DNA of 64,000 nt from Thermodesulfobacteriota bacterium (GTDB lineage Bacteria > Desulfobacterota > Desulfobaccia > Desulfobaccales > 0-14-0-80-60-11): assembly GCA_049322315.1 (NCBI GenBank), contig JBMORF010000082.1, positions 128,141-192,140 on the forward strand. The letters are read 5' to 3'. The stretch's first letter is position 1. Every line of letters begins with the position of its first letter. The translations under genes were made by a program, and so were the position numbers. The notes beneath the pieces are model-generated. The model made no database searches and had not been told where the DNA came from. It saw only the letters and a program-made list of their open reading frames with translations. Positions 1-6,837 of this stretch are shown one piece after another.

Positions 1-1278
1 GGACCGCCGCCCGGAACCCCGGCGCAGCTTCCGGTCCTTGTCCCGGCTGAAGCGTTTGACCTTAAAAGTGGCGCCCACCTCGAAAATTTGCCCGGCCACC
101 TCCTGGTCCCAGGTATCCCCTTCGGACTCCCGGTCCGGGGGGGAAGGCGGAGGGAGAGGCGGCATAACTTCTTCCGGCGGCTGGTTTTCCTGTTGCTCCG
201 CGTCCTCTCCCGGGTTATCCTCCGGTGACTCCTCCTGATTCGCCTCATTATCCGGTGGCGGCGGCGGTGGGGGCGGGGGAGGCGGCGGCATCGTCTCCCG
301 GCGGCGGTGCAGCAGGGCCATGGCGGCCACCTCTTTGATCTCCTCGATACCCGCCTCGGATTTGGCGCGATAGGCGGCCAGGGCTACCGCGGCCCGCTCG
401 ATGATAAGATCCGCCCGGTGGCCGGCGACATTATGGCTCAGGCACAACTCCGAGATCAGGGAGCGCAGGTGCTTGGGAAAGCGCACGGCGGGCAGATTCT
501 CCTGGGCCTGGGCAATCTGGCGGGCGATTATCTCATTGTCCGCCTGATAGGCGGCGATAAAATCCTCGGGCTGATTGTCAAAATCCTCCCGTCTTTCCAT
601 GAGTTCCACCCGGGACTCGAGGTCCGCGCCGCCGTTAATCTCTACGCACAGGCCAAAACGGTCCAAAAGCTGGGGCCGCAAATCGCCTTCCTCAGGATTC
701 ATGGTACCCACCAGAATCAGGCGGGCCGGATGCTGAAAGGAAATCCCTTCCCGCTCCACCACATTCACCCCGCTGGCCGCGGCATCCAGGATGATATCCA
801 CCAGATGATCGTCCAACAGGTTGACTTCATCCACATAGAGAATGCCGCGATTGGCCTTGGCCAGGAGACCGGGCTGAAACCGCCTTACTCCTTCCTGGAC
901 CGCGGCTTCAAAGTCAATGCCGCCCAGAACCATATCTTCCGTGGCATTGAGGGGCAGATCGACGAATCTCACCCGGGAGGTGGCGCCGCCGTTTCGGGGC
1001 GGCCGCCGGCGGCAGTCCCGGCAATAATCCTCGGGAGCCGCCGGGTCGCACCGGAAAGGACAATCGGCCACGATCTTGATCTCGGGCAATAAAGCCGCCA
1101 GGGCCCGGACCGCGGTGGACTTGGCCGTGCCTTTTTCCCCCCGGATCAAGACGCCCCCCACCCGGGGATCAATGGCATTCAGGATCAGGGCCAGCTTCAT
1201 CCGCTCCTGCCCCACAATGGCGGCAAAAGGATAGACCCGGTATCCGCCGGCCGCGCTGCTTGCCTTAGGATCACCCAC
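1..1278 (-). CDS. Class-I (Co/Mg) chelatase ATPase subunit: ChlI/BchI-like AAA+ domain, Pro-rich acidic linker and the start of a ChlD/BchD-like region. Partial; the 3' end runs off the window.
   Basis: Own minus-strand translation from GTG 1278: MGDPKASSAAGGYRVYPFAAIVGQERMKLALILNAIDPRVGGVLIRGEKGTAKST (Walker A), ILYVDEVNLLDDH (Walker B), LVGTMNPEEGDLRPQLLDRFG, then a PPPPPPPPPPPPDNE...EE linker typical of D subunits. It is absent from the ORF track because there is no stop in the window. Track ORF 307..1092(+) is its antisense shadow. Confidence 0.85.
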   Translation of the reverse strand, partial: MGDPKASSAAGGYRVYPFAAIVGQERMKLALILNAIDPRVGGVLIRGEKGTAKSTAVRALAALLPEIKIVADCPFRCDPAAPEDYCRDCRRRPPRNGGATSRVRFVDLPLNATEDMVLGGIDFEAAVQEGVRRFQPGLLAKANRGILYVDEVNLLDDHLVDIILDAAASGVNVVEREGISFQHPARLILVGTMNPEEGDLRPQLLDRFGLCVEINGGADLESRVELMERREDFDNQPEDFIAAYQADNEIIARQIAQAQENLPAVRFPKHLRSLISELCLSHNVAGHRADLIIERAAVALAAYRAKSEAGIEEIKEVAAMALLHRRRETMPPPPPPPPPPPPDNEANQEESPEDNPGEDAEQQENQPPEEVMPPLPPPSPPDRESEGDTWDQEVAGQIFEVGATFKVKRFSRDKDRKLRRGSGRRS

Positions 1279-1341
1279 AATTCACCCCTGGGACCCAGGC
1301 CCCCGTTGGCTGTTTGGAGAAGGTGGCGTCATGGCCGGAGA

Positions 1342-4300
1342 TCAACTCATAACCTCCTCAATCTCTCCCTCAATATCCAGATAGGCCTCCCGGAGCTTAT
1401 CCGTCATCTCCTGGGAGGCGTTCCACATACCCCGGTTAATCGCCTCCAGGAGCTTGTCCAGGATGTTTTGCAGGGCATAAGGATTCACCTCTTTCAGCCA
1501 CTTTTGCATTTCGGGGTCGAGGGCGTATTTATCGGCGAACCGTTCGTACATGAAGTCGTCGACGACTTCCGCGGTGGCGTCCCAACCTAAAACCACGTCC
1601 ATCATTTTGGATAAATCCCCGGCGCCTTTATAGCCGTGGCGCTTCAACCCCTCGATCCATTTGGGATTGAGCAGCCGGGAGCGAAAAACATGCTTGGCCT
1701 CTTCGAAGGTGGTGCGCATCTTGACCCGCTTGGGATCACTGGCGTCCCCCATCAGGGCGAAGGGCAGCTCTCCCCGGACCGCCTTCACCGCCACGATCAA
1801 GCCGCCGTAATAATTGTAATAATCGGTGCAGGAGAACATGTCGTACTCCCGGGAATCTTCATTTTTCACGGTCACGTCCATGCGGGACAGCAGGCGGCGG
1901 AAAGTCTCCGGCTTCTGCTTGCCGTAACTCTCCTGGCCGTAGGCATGGGAGGAATAGCGGATATAATTGTTGGCCAGGTCTTCTTGGGTTTGCCAGGCCT
2001 TGGCCTCGATCAATTCGGCCACGCCGGCCCCGTAGGTCCCCGGCGGACAGCCGAAGACCCGGAAAGTCGCCTCCCGGAAGGCCTCCTCGGAACTCCTGCC
2101 ATCCCGAAGATATTCTTCAATATCCTGCAATACATGCCGCCGGATCATGTTGGTCTCCAAGGGATCATCGAAGACCGCCAGCAGTTGCACCGCCTTATCG
2201 ATTAGCTCCACCAGGTTGGGGAAAGAATCCCGGAAAAACCCGGAAATTCGCGGCACTACATCGATGCGCGGCCGCCCCAATTCGGATTGGGGAATGATTT
2301 CCACCCCCCGCACATTGCCGCTACCCGGCTGCCAAACCGGCTTGACGCCCATCAGGTAGAGAATTTCCGCCAGATCGTCCCCCTTGGAGCGCATGGTGGG
2401 GCCACCCCAGAGTATGATGCCCACACTCTCGGGATACTTGCCGGTATCGTTCAAATAACGCTCCAACAAGGCGTCCCCCAGGCGCTGGCCCACCTCCCAG
2501 GCAGCGGGGCTGGGAATCTTCTGGGGGTCCACGGAGTAAAAATTCTTGCCGGTGGGAAGAATATCGGCCTGTCCCCGGGTGGGGGCCCCGGACGGCCCCG
2601 GCTCCACAAAGCCGCCCTCCAGGGCGTTTAAGGCCGCGTCGATTTCTTCAGTGGCCCGGCGGATATTGGGCACCAATTTCTGGCAGATGTAGTCCAACAC
2701 CGCGGCGACACCGGCGTGGGGTTGGCCGAGCGCCGCGGCGATCATCTCCTGATGGTCGGCCTGGTAATCATTCTCCGCCAACCGGCGCGCCAATTCCAGG
2801 GCCTGCTCATGGGCCTGGCGAATCAACTGTCCCCCGGTTTTCCCCTGGAAGCCGGGCAGAACCTTGCCCTTATTCTCCACCAGAACATCATAATCAAACC
2901 CCAGGGCCGCCACGATGGATTCCCGCAAGGAAGGCACGTCGCCATTGGCCAACCGGGTGAGCTGCACCACAAACTCTTCCAGGCGTTTGCCTGCCGGATA
3001 AGTGCCCAGGGTGTGCAAGCCATCGCTGATCATGGTGTCGGCGACGTCCTCCAGGTAGGCGTGCAACTTTTGCAGAAAACCATCGAAATCCTGCATGGCC
3101 TCGGCTTCGGAAATTTCCAGGTCCTTGTCCAGGTCCGCCTGGGTCACCGCCTCCCAGATCATGGGGCGGATGAGGGCCAGCTTGCCGGGATCTTCCCGCT
3201 TGGCGTCATCGTAATCCCGGAGATGATTCTCCACCTTGGCCAGGTCTTCGTATAAATCGGCGTTGGTAAAAGCCGGAGTCAGGTGATCGATGATGCAGCA
3301 GTAACTGCGCCGCTTGGCCTGGGTGCCTTCGCTGGGATCATTGATGATATAGGGATAGACGTTGGGCAGGTCCATGATGGCCAGGTCGGGGTAACACTCT
3401 TCCGAGAGTCCCAGGGCCTTGCCCGGCAGCCATTCCAGGGAGCCGTGCTTGCCCACGTGAATCACCGCGTCGGCCTTAAAGACGTGCTTCAGCCAGCGGT
3501 ATTTCATCAGGTAATGATGGGGCGGCGAGAGATACAGATCGTGGATAATGGCGTCGGCGTTCTCCAAATAGCCCCGGGGCGGCTGCATGGTGATGAAGAC
3601 GTTGCCGTTAGTAAAACCCGCGAAGTTTAACTCGCCGTTATGCACAAACAGGTCTCCCGGCGGCGGACCCCAGTCTCCGGTCATCTTGGTCCGGGTGGCC
3701 TCCGGCAGGGCTGCATGCCAGGGCAGGTAGTCGTCCGGTCCGGCTTTGGCCAAGGCCCGGTCCGCCATTTTTTCCGGCGTCAGCCAACGCCGGTCGTAGG
3801 TCATCTGCGCCAGCACTTCCTCGGCCATGGCGTCGCCGCTGTCATAAAAGCGTTCCACCCGGTAGCCCCGGTCCGCCATCCTCTCCAACAGCAGCTTGAC
3901 GCTGGCGAAGCTGTCCAACCCCGCGGCGCAGCCGATGCGGTCGTTGCGAGGCGGATAATGATGATAGATAATACCAATCCTCTTCTCCGCGTTCGGTTTC
4001 CGGCGGAGTCTGGCCCAATTGAGAGACAGCGACACCAGCCGCTCCACCCGGTCGGGGATGGGAACCTGCTTGGCCAGCAGCGCGCCGGTAATGGGGTCGT
4101 GTTGTTCTTCTTCCCGGGTGGCCACCGGCACGTTGATCAGCGCGCCGTCGAACTCCGGCTGGGCGGCGCAAAAGGAGACCTCCATGGTGGACATCCCCTG
4201 CCAGCTTTCCTGCCATTGCCGGTAAGGGGAAAAACTGGTCATCGCCTGGATGAAAGGCACGTTCAGCTTGGGCAACAGCTTTTTATACTCCTCCTTGACA

Positions 4301-5112
4301 ATGGTCAGGGAAAACATCAGGGGATTGATCAACACGTCGATACGGGGCCGGCCCTGGTCCAGGAAAAATCGGTCCACGATATAATCCGCCCCCTGGTTCC
4401 CCAGGGTTTTGTCGGGATAACGGATATGAAAGACCGGCAGGACATTGGCCCCCTGTCTTTCTATTTCCCGGATGATGGCGTCGATGTACTGCAAGTTCTG
4501 GTTAACCCAATAATTTTGGTAAAACCATAAGCCCACGGTGAGCTTCCGGGGATCGACCTTGGCGGCCAGATACTCCTCCAAATCGGGGACCGTGGCATAA
4601 TCCGGATGGTAAACGCCTTCCTGGAGGACCTTCTCCGGCAAAACCAGGGGTTCCGCCTCTCCAAAGAGAAGGTTATTGATATAAATCAGCATTTGCAGAA
4701 AATTCTGCGGGCCGCCAAAAGTCAGGTAACGGTTCAGGGTATCCCAGATGCCGTTCTCGAAGCCGTCGGCATATTTCTTGGCCGCGAAGAGGGCCTCTTC
4801 GTCGCCGCCTATGGGCTGCACATGAAAATGGGGGGCTTTTTCCCCGGAGGACCGCCTCTCCTCTAAAGCGGCCACCAAGGGCTCAAAGGCCGGGCAGGAG
4901 GCCTCGCCGCCGTGCAAGGTGATGATGATGATCTCCGCGGCCAGGGCCTCCTTGACAAAGGCGTTTTGCCGGGATTCGTCAAAAAGTTGGCTGCGGGTCC
5001 GGGCGGTAATTTCCAGATTGCCGCCGCTTTCCCGGAAGCGGACCACCGCCTGGCTCAAAATGGGAATTTCATTGGCAGTGGCGCTGAAGTAGGCTAAACG
5101 GTAGGGTTGCAT
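1342..5112 (-). CDS. cobN: CobN / Mg-chelatase H family large chelatase subunit (cobaltochelatase CobN-like), 1256 aa
   Basis: Track ORF 1342..5265. The likely start is ATG 5112 (MQPYRLAYFSATANE...), which overlaps the stop of the upstream radical-SAM gene. Length and sequence are typical of CobN (e.g. VGKHGSLEWLPGK, GRPRIDVVPRISGFFRD). It lies next to a ChlI/D-type ATPase gene. Confidence 0.9.
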   Translation of the reverse strand: MQPYRLAYFSATANEIPILSQAVVRFRESGGNLEITARTRSQLFDESRQNAFVKEALAAEIIIITLHGGEASCPAFEPLVAALEERRSSGEKAPHFHVQPIGGDEEALFAAKKYADGFENGIWDTLNRYLTFGGPQNFLQMLIYINNLLFGEAEPLVLPEKVLQEGVYHPDYATVPDLEEYLAAKVDPRKLTVGLWFYQNYWVNQNLQYIDAIIREIERQGANVLPVFHIRYPDKTLGNQGADYIVDRFFLDQGRPRIDVLINPLMFSLTIVKEEYKKLLPKLNVPFIQAMTSFSPYRQWQESWQGMSTMEVSFCAAQPEFDGALINVPVATREEEQHDPITGALLAKQVPIPDRVERLVSLSLNWARLRRKPNAEKRIGIIYHHYPPRNDRIGCAAGLDSFASVKLLLERMADRGYRVERFYDSGDAMAEEVLAQMTYDRRWLTPEKMADRALAKAGPDDYLPWHAALPEATRTKMTGDWGPPPGDLFVHNGELNFAGFTNGNVFITMQPPRGYLENADAIIHDLYLSPPHHYLMKYRWLKHVFKADAVIHVGKHGSLEWLPGKALGLSEECYPDLAIMDLPNVYPYIINDPSEGTQAKRRSYCCIIDHLTPAFTNADLYEDLAKVENHLRDYDDAKREDPGKLALIRPMIWEAVTQADLDKDLEISEAEAMQDFDGFLQKLHAYLEDVADTMISDGLHTLGTYPAGKRLEEFVVQLTRLANGDVPSLRESIVAALGFDYDVLVENKGKVLPGFQGKTGGQLIRQAHEQALELARRLAENDYQADHQEMIAAALGQPHAGVAAVLDYICQKLVPNIRRATEEIDAALNALEGGFVEPGPSGAPTRGQADILPTGKNFYSVDPQKIPSPAAWEVGQRLGDALLERYLNDTGKYPESVGIILWGGPTMRSKGDDLAEILYLMGVKPVWQPGSGNVRGVEIIPQSELGRPRIDVVPRISGFFRDSFPNLVELIDKAVQLLAVFDDPLETNMIRRHVLQDIEEYLRDGRSSEEAFREATFRVFGCPPGTYGAGVAELIEAKAWQTQEDLANNYIRYSSHAYGQESYGKQKPETFRRLLSRMDVTVKNEDSREYDMFSCTDYYNYYGGLIVAVKAVRGELPFALMGDASDPKRVKMRTTFEEAKHVFRSRLLNPKWIEGLKRHGYKGAGDLSKMMDVVLGWDATAEVVDDFMYERFADKYALDPEMQKWLKEVNPYALQNILDKLLEAINRGMWNASQEMTDKLREAYLDIEGEIEEVMS

Positions 5113-6173
5113 GACTGATTCTCTCCCTCGGTGATATTGGACAAGGAATGATAATGGGGGCGTTTCTGCTGCATGTAGGCCCAGATGGCCCGGTAGAGAT
5201 GGCAAGCAAGCCCTGACTGCTGGTAATCGTTGTAGAACAGACGGCTGGGGCAATCGCCGGGACAAAAATTATGGAGTGGGCATGATTCGCAGTCGGCGTC
5301 GGGTCGGCGGCGCCAGCCCCCAAGTTTCAATTTTTCCCCGGCCAGGTCCTCTACGGTGCCGGCGTAAAAACGGGAATCACCGATGGTTTGGCCACAAGGG
5401 TAAACGCTGCCGTCCGGATGCGCCGCCAGGCTTTCGCCCCGGCAGGCGTGGCAGAAATCCCGGGATTGCCGCCGGCGCCAGGCCTCTTCCAGTTTATCGA
5501 GTTCCCGCAGTTGCAGGGGGATGGGCCGCCTTTTATTGATGAGTTCCAGGGTGTGGAGAAGTTCGGAAACACCGATCTGTAAAGACTTGGCCGGGGCCGG
5601 GGCGACGCCGTTTGCCCGCGCGGCCCCTTTATCGATCAATAAATCCAGGCCGAGACCCCGGGCCTGGGAAAAGCCGCCTAAAAGCAGCGCCAATCCCTCC
5701 AGGCGGCCGACATTCTGGGCGGTCACCACCGTGGTGACCCGGAATTCAATCCTATTTTCCTCCAATTGCCGCAGGCCCGCGAAGGTCTGTGGAAACCCAC
5801 CCCTTTGCGCCTCATGCACGGCAGGCGAGCCGTCCAGACTGACGCCCACCTGAATACGGTATTGCTTGATGAGGCGGATGAGCTGAGCATCGATGCACGT
5901 GCCGTTAGTTTGCAGCCCCAGGGTAGCCGGCAAGCCCGCCCCCCGCACCCGGGCGGCGGTATAGGCGATCAAATCCGGCTTGAGCGTCGGTTCGCCGCCG
6001 CTTAACTGCACGTGAAAGGGTTGACCGGAAGCTTCGGCCAAGCTGATGGCCCGGTCGATGATTCCGGGGGACATCACGTGCGGCGCTGCCGTGGGCGGGC
6101 GATAGCAATAGCGGCACTGCAGATTGCAGTCATCCGTGAGCCACAAGATCAAATAGCGAATCGTCGGCTTCAT
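5094..6173 (-). CDS. Radical SAM enzyme with a C-terminal SPASM-type auxiliary Cys cluster region
   Basis: N-terminal CX3CX2C motif (LTDDCNLQCRYCY). C-terminal Cys-rich segment CHACRGES..YPCGQ..CESCPLHNFCPGDCPSR. First gene after the cobalamin riboswitch. Its last 19 nt overlap the cobN start. Confidence 0.85.
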   Translation of the reverse strand: MKPTIRYLILWLTDDCNLQCRYCYRPPTAAPHVMSPGIIDRAISLAEASGQPFHVQLSGGEPTLKPDLIAYTAARVRGAGLPATLGLQTNGTCIDAQLIRLIKQYRIQVGVSLDGSPAVHEAQRGGFPQTFAGLRQLEENRIEFRVTTVVTAQNVGRLEGLALLLGGFSQARGLGLDLLIDKGAARANGVAPAPAKSLQIGVSELLHTLELINKRRPIPLQLRELDKLEEAWRRRQSRDFCHACRGESLAAHPDGSVYPCGQTIGDSRFYAGTVEDLAGEKLKLGGWRRRPDADCESCPLHNFCPGDCPSRLFYNDYQQSGLACHLYRAIWAYMQQKRPHYHSLSNITEGENQSCNPTV

Positions 6174-6314
6174 CTACACACCCAATTAGCGTCTCAACAA
6201 CAGCTCAAAATCGATTGTAATCCGGGTCCTTATGCCTTACTGCCAAATGATTGAGCGCCAGATGCAAGGATTCTTTGGTCATCATCAGGTTTCCGCGGCC
6301 CAGGAATCGAGCCC

Positions 6315-6351
6315 AAAAAAAAATCCTTGAGTCCAAACGGACCCAAGGATT
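6315..6351 (-). terminator. Intrinsic terminator forming the expression platform of the cobalamin riboswitch
   Basis: Minus-strand read AATCCTTGGGTCC-GTTT-GGACTCAAGGATT: a 13-bp stem with one G-U pair, followed by nine T (plus-strand A-run 6315..6323). It lies about 140 nt upstream of the radical-SAM start. Confidence 0.85.
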
Positions 6352-6623
6352 GCACCCAGTTTCACTTGTTCCTCGGGGAGGCTGGAGAGCTTTGCCATTC
6401 CTCTCGCAGCCCAGCTTCGCCCAATCCGTCGTTGGGCATCGGCCTGATGGTTACAGGCAGGTCTTCTGGCTCCCGGATCTTTCTACTCCCTGCGCCTTCC
6501 CATCTCTTTTAAAAAAGACAGTGGCTTTCACGCAGGTTTCGTCCCCGGTTACAGCGGCGGGACCGCGCCGGTTTCACACCGGCTTCCCTATCAAGCCCCT
6601 CAGGGCACCTGTAGCTCTAATTA
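6352..6623 (-). promoter_or_regulatory. Cobalamin (B12) riboswitch aptamer
   Basis: Minus-strand read contains GGTGCCCTGAGGGGCTTGATAGGGAAGCCGGTGTGAAACCGGCGCGGTCCCGCCGCTGTAACCGGGGACGAA...GCCACTG and a B12-box-like GGGAGCCAGAAGACCTGCC (about 6455..6473). This matches the conserved cobalamin riboswitch core. It precedes a cobN operon. Confidence 0.9.
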
Positions 6624-6629
6624 AGGCAA

Positions 6630-6659
6630 ATAATATGCCCCCTCTCAGTCCGCTGTCAA
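6630..6659 (-). promoter_or_regulatory. Sigma-70-type promoter driving the riboswitch and chelatase operon
   Basis: Minus-strand TTGACA (6659..6654), an 18-nt spacer, then TATTAT (6635..6630), immediately upstream of the first riboswitch helix. Confidence 0.6.
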
Positions 6660-6837
6660 TATAATTTTTTCCCTGGCGCAGTTTTTAGGCCGGCAAGGAA
6701 AAATGAAGGAGGAGCAGGATAGCTGGAATGGCCAGGAAAAAGCAGGGAGCAACGCCCCGTCTGTTAATCAGTTAAAAATTATGCTAATCTGGGGTCGGGG
6801 TGTTTTTGCTTCACCCCTGAGATTGCCCGAGGTTTCC

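Follow-up and report, generated by a model that had tools for sequence, protein, structure and literature searches.

An operon under predicted cobalamin control

The DNA analyzed here, called the window, is a stretch of 64,000 nucleotides from a Thermodesulfobacteriota bacterium (G000:C82:128141-192140, with G000 designating the window genome), and its closest public relatives are Thermodesulfobacteriota or Desulfobacca-type metagenome-assembled genomes (MAGs). The window begins within an operon on the minus strand in which a gene encoding an uncharacterized radical S-adenosylmethionine (SAM)/SPASM enzyme, hereafter rSAM, precedes genes encoding CobN1, a large subunit of the class I chelatase type, and a ChlD-type medium subunit; the 14 kb preceding the window start (L008) were taken in for the rest of the operon. 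As judged by co-occurrence, gene order, and regulation, the CobN1 clade has rSAM as its dedicated partner. CobN with ChlID within B12 regulons and CobN homologs of unknown role in anaerobes are already known (PMC9227772, PMC12583661). The pairing of an uncharacterized radical-SAM enzyme with a single clade of large subunits of ATP-driven cobalt chelatases appears to be new, no earlier description of it having been found: a search of the literature returned no paper joining a radical-SAM/SPASM enzyme, or the amidase of related loci described below, to CobN, and cobN goes unmentioned in a 2004 delta-proteobacteria paper.

The leader of the operon opens with a sigma-70-type promoter-like site (TTGACA, an 18-nucleotide spacer, and TATTAT; positions 6630 to 6659, minus strand) that matches at 11 of 12 positions; two promoter-like sites were found, compared with a mean of 0.5 in shuffled sequences. 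The cobalamin riboswitch aptamer (6439 to 6627, minus strand) matches RF00174 over the full model positions 1 to 189 with 119.6 bits (gathering score, 31.5; E value, 2.1e-29). An intrinsic terminator (6313 to 6351, minus strand), consisting of a 13-bp stem (6351 to 6322), a 4-nucleotide loop, and a T9 tract, begins 88 nucleotides downstream of the aptamer and forms the expression platform. All three elements had been proposed in an earlier sequence-only reading of the window, and the covariance search and motif scans bear them out. Together they have the anatomy of a transcriptional OFF switch, and B12-riboswitch control of the operon is firmly predicted from this anatomy and from its conservation.

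The first intact gene after the leader is rSAM (5094 to 6173, minus strand; 359 amino acids), which matches PF04055 with 54.2 bits (cut-off, 29.5). It is followed by cobN1 (1342 to 5112, minus strand; 1,256 amino acids), whose product matches PF02514 with 1332 bits. The ATG of cobN1 at position 5112 sits 19 nucleotides inside the rSAM open reading frame (overlap, 5094 to 5112), as the sequence-only reading had it, and is preceded by the ribosome-binding site GAGGGAGAG.

Pairing of rSAM with one clade of CobN

The distribution of the two genes was profiled across 401 genomes sampled evenly from the phylum, with a threshold of E <= 1e-30 for rSAM and with membership in the CobN1 clade defined as a full-length match at an identity of >= 47%. 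rSAM was found in 24 of the 401 genomes, all of which (24/24) also carry a CobN1-clade gene. The CobN1 clade itself occurs in 25 genomes, namely, the 24 that carry rSAM and one more, G095, while some 50 further genomes contain other CobN clades only (<= 42% identity) and no rSAM. A FastTree phylogeny of 37 CobN sequences placed all of the rSAM-linked CobNs in one clade (support values of 0.989 for N1, 1.0 for the N1b subclade, and 0.844 for the two joined), which is sister to the clade of CobN2, a second CobN encoded farther along the operon (support, 1.0).

Gene order agrees with this distribution. Among 20 rSAM loci that were fetched, rSAM directly adjoins a CobN1-type cobN in 16, and 14 have a same-strand RF00174 match upstream. 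The adjacency persists where the identity of rSAM is only 31 to 33%, and the pairing is therefore old; the rSAM/cobN cluster is present in an Accumulibacter MAG as well. The coupling of rSAM to cobN that had been read from this single operon is thus a near one-to-one link, both evolutionary and positional, between the rSAM family and one CobN clade.

Some loci depart from the common arrangement. The riboswitch stands between rSAM and cobN1 rather than before rSAM in one related genome (L048 9270-9457), and three other loci have two or three cobalamin riboswitches, some of them in tandem (L054 3841-6034, L055 12347-13013, and L063 225-690 and 10658-10862). In G017 (L064 9638-10318), the rSAM gene beside the main CobN1 gene appears to be frameshifted, matching residues 2 to 230 only, and a second, more divergent rSAM/CobN pair is located 75 kb away.

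An amidase family as a third partner

In the congener used for comparison, locus L045 contains a gene for a nitrilase-superfamily amidase of about 500 amino acids between the riboswitch and rSAM (L045 10510-12060). The family lies directly beside rSAM in 7 loci and near it in 2 more, and it occurs in 16 of the 401 genomes, 15 of which (15/16) are rSAM carriers. In G354, a second amidase copy follows a second CobN1-clade gene without rSAM. The amidase is a third frequent partner of rSAM and CobN1.

The window retains only a remnant of this gene, which did not figure in the sequence-only reading: 26 codons (6205 to 6285, minus strand) between the terminator and rSAM encode a peptide matching the N terminus of the L045 amidase. 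The alignment of window positions 6700 to 6212 with L045 12401-11918 and of positions 6214 to 5901 with L045 10535-10222 identifies a clean deletion of 1,382 bp relative to the congener, with its junction near 6212 to 6214. No further amidase copy was found in the window genome.

The radical-SAM/SPASM protein

The cluster-binding motif of the radical-SAM core, CX3CX2C (C16/C20/C23), is invariant in 26 homologs, as are seven SPASM cysteines (C241, C260, C295, C298, C304, C308, and C324), whose pattern includes CX2CX5CX3C at residues 295 to 308; no hidden Markov model (HMM) for SPASM was among the matches listed. Every named NCBIfam family scores far under its cut-off. The best full-length matches are to modifiers of proteins and peptides, with 103 bits for PapB (NF047865; cut-off, 340) and 85 bits for the anaerobic sulfatase-maturating enzyme anSME (TIGR03942; cut-off, 349.45), i.e., a quarter to a third of the cut-offs, and the nearest relatives of rSAM are therefore not well-characterized enzymes of unrelated function. 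The tetrapyrrole-modifying enzymes AhbD (TIGR04545; 50.1 bits against 500) and NirJ (TIGR04051; 60.6 bits against 515) align with the N-terminal core only. A structure model (pLDDT, 89.5) is nearest in fold to CteB and anSME (TM scores of 0.72 to 0.75), and an ESM Atlas search with rSAM returned generic radical-SAM clusters only.

Among the candidates scored, the family comprised 349 members at E <= 1e-20, mostly from Desulfobacterota-type organisms and, where named at all, bearing generic names ("radical SAM protein"). Database entries for homologs include the cultured Desulfocicer vacuolatum DSM 3385 and Desulfobulbus alkaliphilus. Between the window genome and the congener, the ratio of nonsynonymous to synonymous substitution rates is 0.23 for rSAM and 0.14 for CobN1.

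Three other roles or features considered for rSAM were rejected. Flags of a "TGA inside" the genes, which would have suggested selenocysteine, are the genes' own stop codons. A system producing ribosomally synthesized and post-translationally modified peptides (RiPPs) was discarded, there being no RiPP recognition element (RRE) domain in rSAM and no conserved small or precursor-peptide open reading frame beside it; the upstream open reading frames are the ends of TonB-receptor or amidase genes. Replacement of the adenosyltransferase by rSAM gains no support from gene absence, as all five carriers tested (5/5) have a CobA-type gene, four of the five above the family cut-off and that of G359 just under it (163.9 against 167.75), and the operon itself encodes one.

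CobN1 and its metal site

CobN1 passes the CobN family model (TIGR02257, 962.6 bits; cut-off, 822.05) and also, just barely, that of BchH (TIGR02025, 836.1 bits; cut-off, 829), so the models alone do not fix the metal. Sequence matches in the PDB rank CobN first (7c6o, 783 bits; 9uk9, 680 bits), followed by ChlH (524 bits) and HmuS (378 bits). Neither a signal peptide nor a transmembrane segment was found in CobN1, consistent with a cytoplasmic location.

A preprint has proposed H554, E593, and D1100 as the active site of CobN (10.64898/2026.07.21.739949). The equivalents of H554 (in GKHG) and E593 (in NDPxEG) are kept in CobN1 and conserved in all of the CobN clades examined. The equivalent of D1100 is a threonine following a conserved cysteine (SCTD) throughout the main CobN1 clade, where the loop reads REYD..SCTDYY; the canonical CobN loop is REHD..DSDDYY, and the N1b subclade has SSDD. 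The family models and two of the three proposed residues thus mark CobN1 as a predicted CobN with a noncanonical metal site. Elsewhere in the family (CobN2 at L008 8248-12204 and L074-L078), the CobN2 clade has a conserved triple-cysteine loop, GCCCYF, at the proposed metal site, and a further CobN clade with about 33% identity has DLDHYY at the loop.

The chelatase motor and the remainder of the operon

Downstream of cobN1, the window contains the 5' part of the ChlD-type gene (1 to 1278, minus strand; 426 of 676 amino acids), the full gene of which spans L008 13248-15278. The full protein scores 808.4 bits against TIGR02442 (cut-off, 779.45) and consists of an AAA+ module with intact Walker A and B motifs, a poly-proline (P12) linker at residues 331 to 342, and a VWA domain with a MIDAS motif (DASGS) that is encoded beyond the window start. 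The sequence-only reading had described this protein as a ChlI/D fusion; its AAA+ module, poly-proline linker, and D-subunit-like part are as described, but the protein is an ordinary ChlD, and ChlI has not been replaced by it. A separate 344-amino-acid ChlI gene follows (L008 12214-13248), encoding Mg_chelatase and AAA_lid_2 Pfam domains with Walker motifs. With 434.8 bits against TIGR02030 (ChlI/BchI), just under the cut-off of 466.95, its product is best described as a predicted ChlI-like protein rather than a Mg-chelatase equivalog.

The unit of three genes recognized earlier is the head of a single-strand operon of 14 genes and about 20 kb, with overlaps of 1 to 19 nucleotides or gaps of <= 63 nucleotides, which reaches about 14 kb beyond the window start; the tally of this extension as ChlI plus nine more genes is one short of the gene-by-gene count, in which ten genes (CobN2 to CbiK) follow ChlI. 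After rSAM, CobN1, ChlD, and ChlI (genes 1 to 4), gene 5 encodes CobN2 (1,318 amino acids; L008 8248-12204; NF004646, 1820 bits against 1468), which is more distant than CobN1 from the solved CobN, ChlH, and HmuS structures. Genes 6 and 7 encode an ABC-2 ATPase and permease, gene 8 a CcsA-like membrane protein of 283 amino acids with a WWD-like motif (GWGTLVVWED), and gene 9 a ResB-like membrane protein of 273 amino acids. Genes 10 to 12 encode BtuF (with a lipoprotein signal), BtuC, and BtuD, gene 13 a CobA-type adenosyltransferase (TIGR00708, 217 bits against 168), and gene 14 a CbiK-like chelatase. The genes thus form one long operon, with the neighbors drawn from corrinoid uptake and processing. 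The CcsA-like and ResB-like proteins (L008 4918-6587, between the ABC-2 pair and BtuF) are relatives of the heme-handling pair of System II cytochrome c maturation, and such proteins co-occur with BtuFCD in about 10 related loci.

Neighboring genes in related loci and B12 genes of the window genome

Related loci contain TonB-dependent receptors, ExbB, and CbiZ. In G359, a 100%-complete genome of 1.7 Mb, the order (L061) is riboswitch, CbiK-like, TonB receptor, CbiZ, BtuF, rSAM, CobN1, and CobD, followed by a Dph6-like ligase, CobU, CobT, CobS, and CobQ. CbiD was not detected in G359 (L061; C7:157528-158091); CbiC, CbiA, CobQ, and a CobA-type match (163.9 against 167.75) are present. The idea that G359 is a pure salvager was dropped, because CbiC, CbiA, and CobA are there even though CbiD was not found. 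The rSAM of G359 is without the CX2C part of the SPASM motif.

Six further RF00174 matches occur in the window genome, and five of these exceed the gathering score. Of the four behind which the genes were examined in detail, one precedes a cbi cluster (CbiA, CbiC, CbiL, and CbiD), one precedes BtuB-BtuFCD, and one (G000:C63:38033-39200) stands before a CbiK whose signal peptide is clear and which resembles the periplasmic CbiK described for Desulfovibrio. The small chelatases that the sequence-only reading had expected, together with markers of the anaerobic pathway, are present elsewhere in the genome, behind other riboswitches, in the form of CbiK (two copies), CbiD, and CbiC, the last two being single copy. 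With de novo cbi genes and an ordinary importer already encoded, the operon is an addition to them.

A possible accessory module for corrinoid acquisition and metalation

The reading that we favor, with confidence evenly divided between it and everything else, is that the operon encodes an accessory module for corrinoid acquisition and metalation that is placed on top of the anaerobic de novo pathway. From gene content and sequence, we infer which substrate is used, which way the metal is transferred, and what rSAM does, as follows. When cobalamin is plentiful, the leader would shut off the 14-gene operon. Otherwise, the BtuFCD-type importer would bring in a corrinoid or corrinoid precursor, and the ATP-driven class I chelatase, with CobN1 and perhaps CobN2 served by one ChlI/ChlD motor, would insert cobalt, after which CobA would adenosylate the product. 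rSAM, together with the often adjacent amidase that has been deleted here, would most likely work on the corrinoid handled by CobN1, either readying the substrate or processing the cobalt(II) product. Our confidence that rSAM and the amidase act on the corrinoid is likewise close to the midpoint.

The earlier suggestion of salvage or remodeling in preference to de novo synthesis gains from BtuFCD and CobA in the operon, from the TonB receptors, CbiZ, and amidase of related loci, and from the presence of CbiK, CbiD, and CbiC elsewhere in the genome; it loses from the placement of the G359 pair within a general cob operon. Several further observations weigh against an accessory module of this kind. 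Besides standing inside a general cob operon, the rSAM/CobN1 pair of G359 is followed closely by CbiC on the same contig. Of 24 genomes tested, 23 have CbiD (22 of the 23 other rSAM carriers, and G095), so the pair may have a role in de novo synthesis. G095, a 100%-complete genome, keeps a CobN1 orthologue and has no rSAM even at E <= 1e-8. The best HMM and fold matches of rSAM are the modifiers of proteins and peptides PapB, anSME, and CteB, not AhbD or NirJ. SCTD takes the place of the canonical DSDD loop (D1100 in CobN 9uk9), and the metal or mechanism of CobN1 may therefore differ from that of canonical CobN. The scheme does not explain what CobN2, the ABC-2 proteins, and the CcsA/ResB-like proteins do, and no natural source of metal-free corrinoid has been shown for the habitat.

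A bolder form of the proposal, which we consider doubtful, is that rSAM is an obligatory catalytic partner of the class I chelatase in anaerobes, acting before or after cobalt insertion. Speculatively, it might trap the Co(II) product with the 5'-deoxyadenosyl radical or make metal-free or damaged imported corrinoids usable. Were this so, the locus would represent a new oxygen-independent branch of B12 metabolism for late cobalt insertion or corrinoid repair, with a dedicated amidase and heme-handling-type membrane proteins of its own.

The matches of rSAM to protein modifiers raise the alternative that it is a maturase, which modifies CobN1 or another subunit in the manner of anSME, for example at the clade-specific Ser-Cys loop, and that CobN1-clade chelatases would need this modification to work anaerobically. 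The best full-length models (PapB, 103 bits; anSME, 85 bits), the restriction of the NirJ and AhbD matches to the N-terminal core, a fold nearest anSME and CteB (TM score of ~0.74), and an anSME-like size are all consistent with such a role, as are the near one-to-one co-occurrence with a single protein clade, the translational coupling of the genes, and the presence of SCTD or SSDD in the CobN1 clade where canonical CobN has DSDD. Against it, the SCTD loop is unchanged in G095, which has no rSAM; no recognizable target motif was found; and rSAM is frequently accompanied by an amidase and surrounded by small-molecule corrinoid enzymes. As weaker evidence, no rSAM fusion protein was scored at 630 to 2,000 amino acids. 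An attempt to deduce the target from the rSAM-less G095 was dropped because its unchanged SCTD loop is uninformative. We regard a maturase as rather unlikely; if correct, it would give the first post-translationally matured tetrapyrrole chelatase.

The chelatase might also run in reverse, with CobN1, CobN2, or both pulling cobalt from imported unusable corrinoids as HmuS does with heme, rSAM and the amidase dismantling the ring or side chains as ChuW does with heme, the cobalt feeding CbiK, and the metal-free remainder being exported by the ABC-2 or CcsA/ResB-like proteins. A CobN-family de-chelatase is on record (PMC12583661), and a heme-opening radical-SAM enzyme is among the precedents cited there. 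The operon includes CbiK, an exporter-type ABC-2 pair, and relatives of heme-handling proteins, and CbiD, a marker of de novo synthesis, is present in 23 of the 24 carriers tested. Cobalt uptake genes are commonly B12 regulated, which would fit as well. This alternative is improbable in our estimation, as CobN1 is much nearer to CobN than to HmuS (783 versus 378 bits) and the corrinoid appears to be kept, as suggested by the operon's own CobA and by the CobQ, CobD, and CobT genes that neighbor the pair in L061. To our knowledge, no enzyme has ever been shown to remove cobalt from a corrin.

A similarly low probability attaches to the view that the pair belongs to a branch of de novo synthesis that inserts cobalt late and needs no oxygen. 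A metal-free corrin would then be made and cobalt added late when scarce, with rSAM replacing an oxygen-dependent step such as that of CobG or a step beside chelation. The replacement of oxygen-dependent tetrapyrrole enzymes by radical-SAM enzymes is a known pattern (e.g., HemN and BchE), carriers are almost always B12 producers, and in G359, where CbiD was not found, the pair is embedded in a general cob operon that has CbiC close behind it on the same contig. However, the window genome has only one copy each of CbiD and CbiC and so lacks a duplicate set of enzymes for building the ring; moreover, the pair is found mostly with importers (TonB receptors and BtuFCD) and CbiZ, and the tight coupling links it with the chelatase rather than with genes for ring contraction.

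It is puzzling that strict anaerobes equipped with CbiK/CbiX for early insertion should also retain ATP-driven chelatases of the CobN type. The HmuS study noted that most such CobN-family members cannot yet be annotated (PMC12583661). The locus offers a handle on this puzzle, being a B12-controlled CobN clade with its own radical-SAM enzyme and amidase beside importers. Were rSAM to work on the corrinoid, B12 metalation or salvage would for the first time include a radical-SAM reaction, and this would hint at environmental pools of metal-free or modified corrinoids that anoxic communities share as a resource.

Comparison with known systems

The CobN plus ChlI/ChlD class I cobaltochelatase has been proposed as the analog of CobNST for genomes lacking CobS/CobT (TIGR02257, TIGR02442). 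The operon resembles that system in having CobN and ChlD above the family cut-offs, a ChlI with intact Walker motifs, and B12-riboswitch control. It differs in that the host, from a lineage of strict anaerobes, possesses CbiK, CbiD, and CbiC as well, in that two CobN paralogs are combined here with one motor, in the SCTD rather than DSDD loop, and in having no cobW-like gene within the operon. We know of no described chelatase that has a dedicated radical-SAM partner, often accompanied by an amidase, as the CobN1 clade does.

For rSAM itself, anSME, CteB, and PapB share the partial TIM barrel and the seven-cysteine SPASM domain, and anSME is also of the same size and without an RRE. Unlike anSME and PapB, however, rSAM has no sulfatase or precursor peptide nearby, scores far below their cut-offs, and has a chelatase as its genomic partner. 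AhbD, AhbC, and NirJ, radical-SAM enzymes of sulfate reducers and denitrifiers that act on tetrapyrrole side chains and have auxiliary clusters, occur in organisms of the same kind and offer a plausible chemical analogy; in contrast to rSAM, with which they align over the N-terminal core only (50 to 60 bits against 500 to 515), their context is the synthesis of heme or heme d1, not of B12.

Loci for BtuFCD/CbiZ salvage resemble the operon through BtuF, BtuC, BtuD, and CobA, through the TonB receptors and CbiZ of its relatives, and through the same regulation. Known salvage of this type, by contrast, needs no chelatase, radical-SAM enzyme, or CcsA/ResB-like proteins, and the window genome has its separate BtuB-BtuFCD locus behind another riboswitch.

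The heme de-chelatase HmuS/BtuS of Bacteroidota (PMC12583661, PMC6460266) is likewise a large subunit of the CobN family from anaerobic bacteria, encoded in clusters with genes for uptake and for ChlI-like ATPases, and it shows that the CobN family can run in reverse (PMC12583661). HmuS is exported or membrane anchored and without riboswitch control, whereas CobN1 lacks a signal peptide and matches HmuS with 378 bits, compared with 783 bits for CobN. A third CobN paralog of the window genome (G000:C5:26199-29453; open frame of 1,419 amino acids) has a hydrophobic N terminus resembling a signal or transmembrane segment and is more like the exported HmuS/BtuS-type proteins than CobN is.

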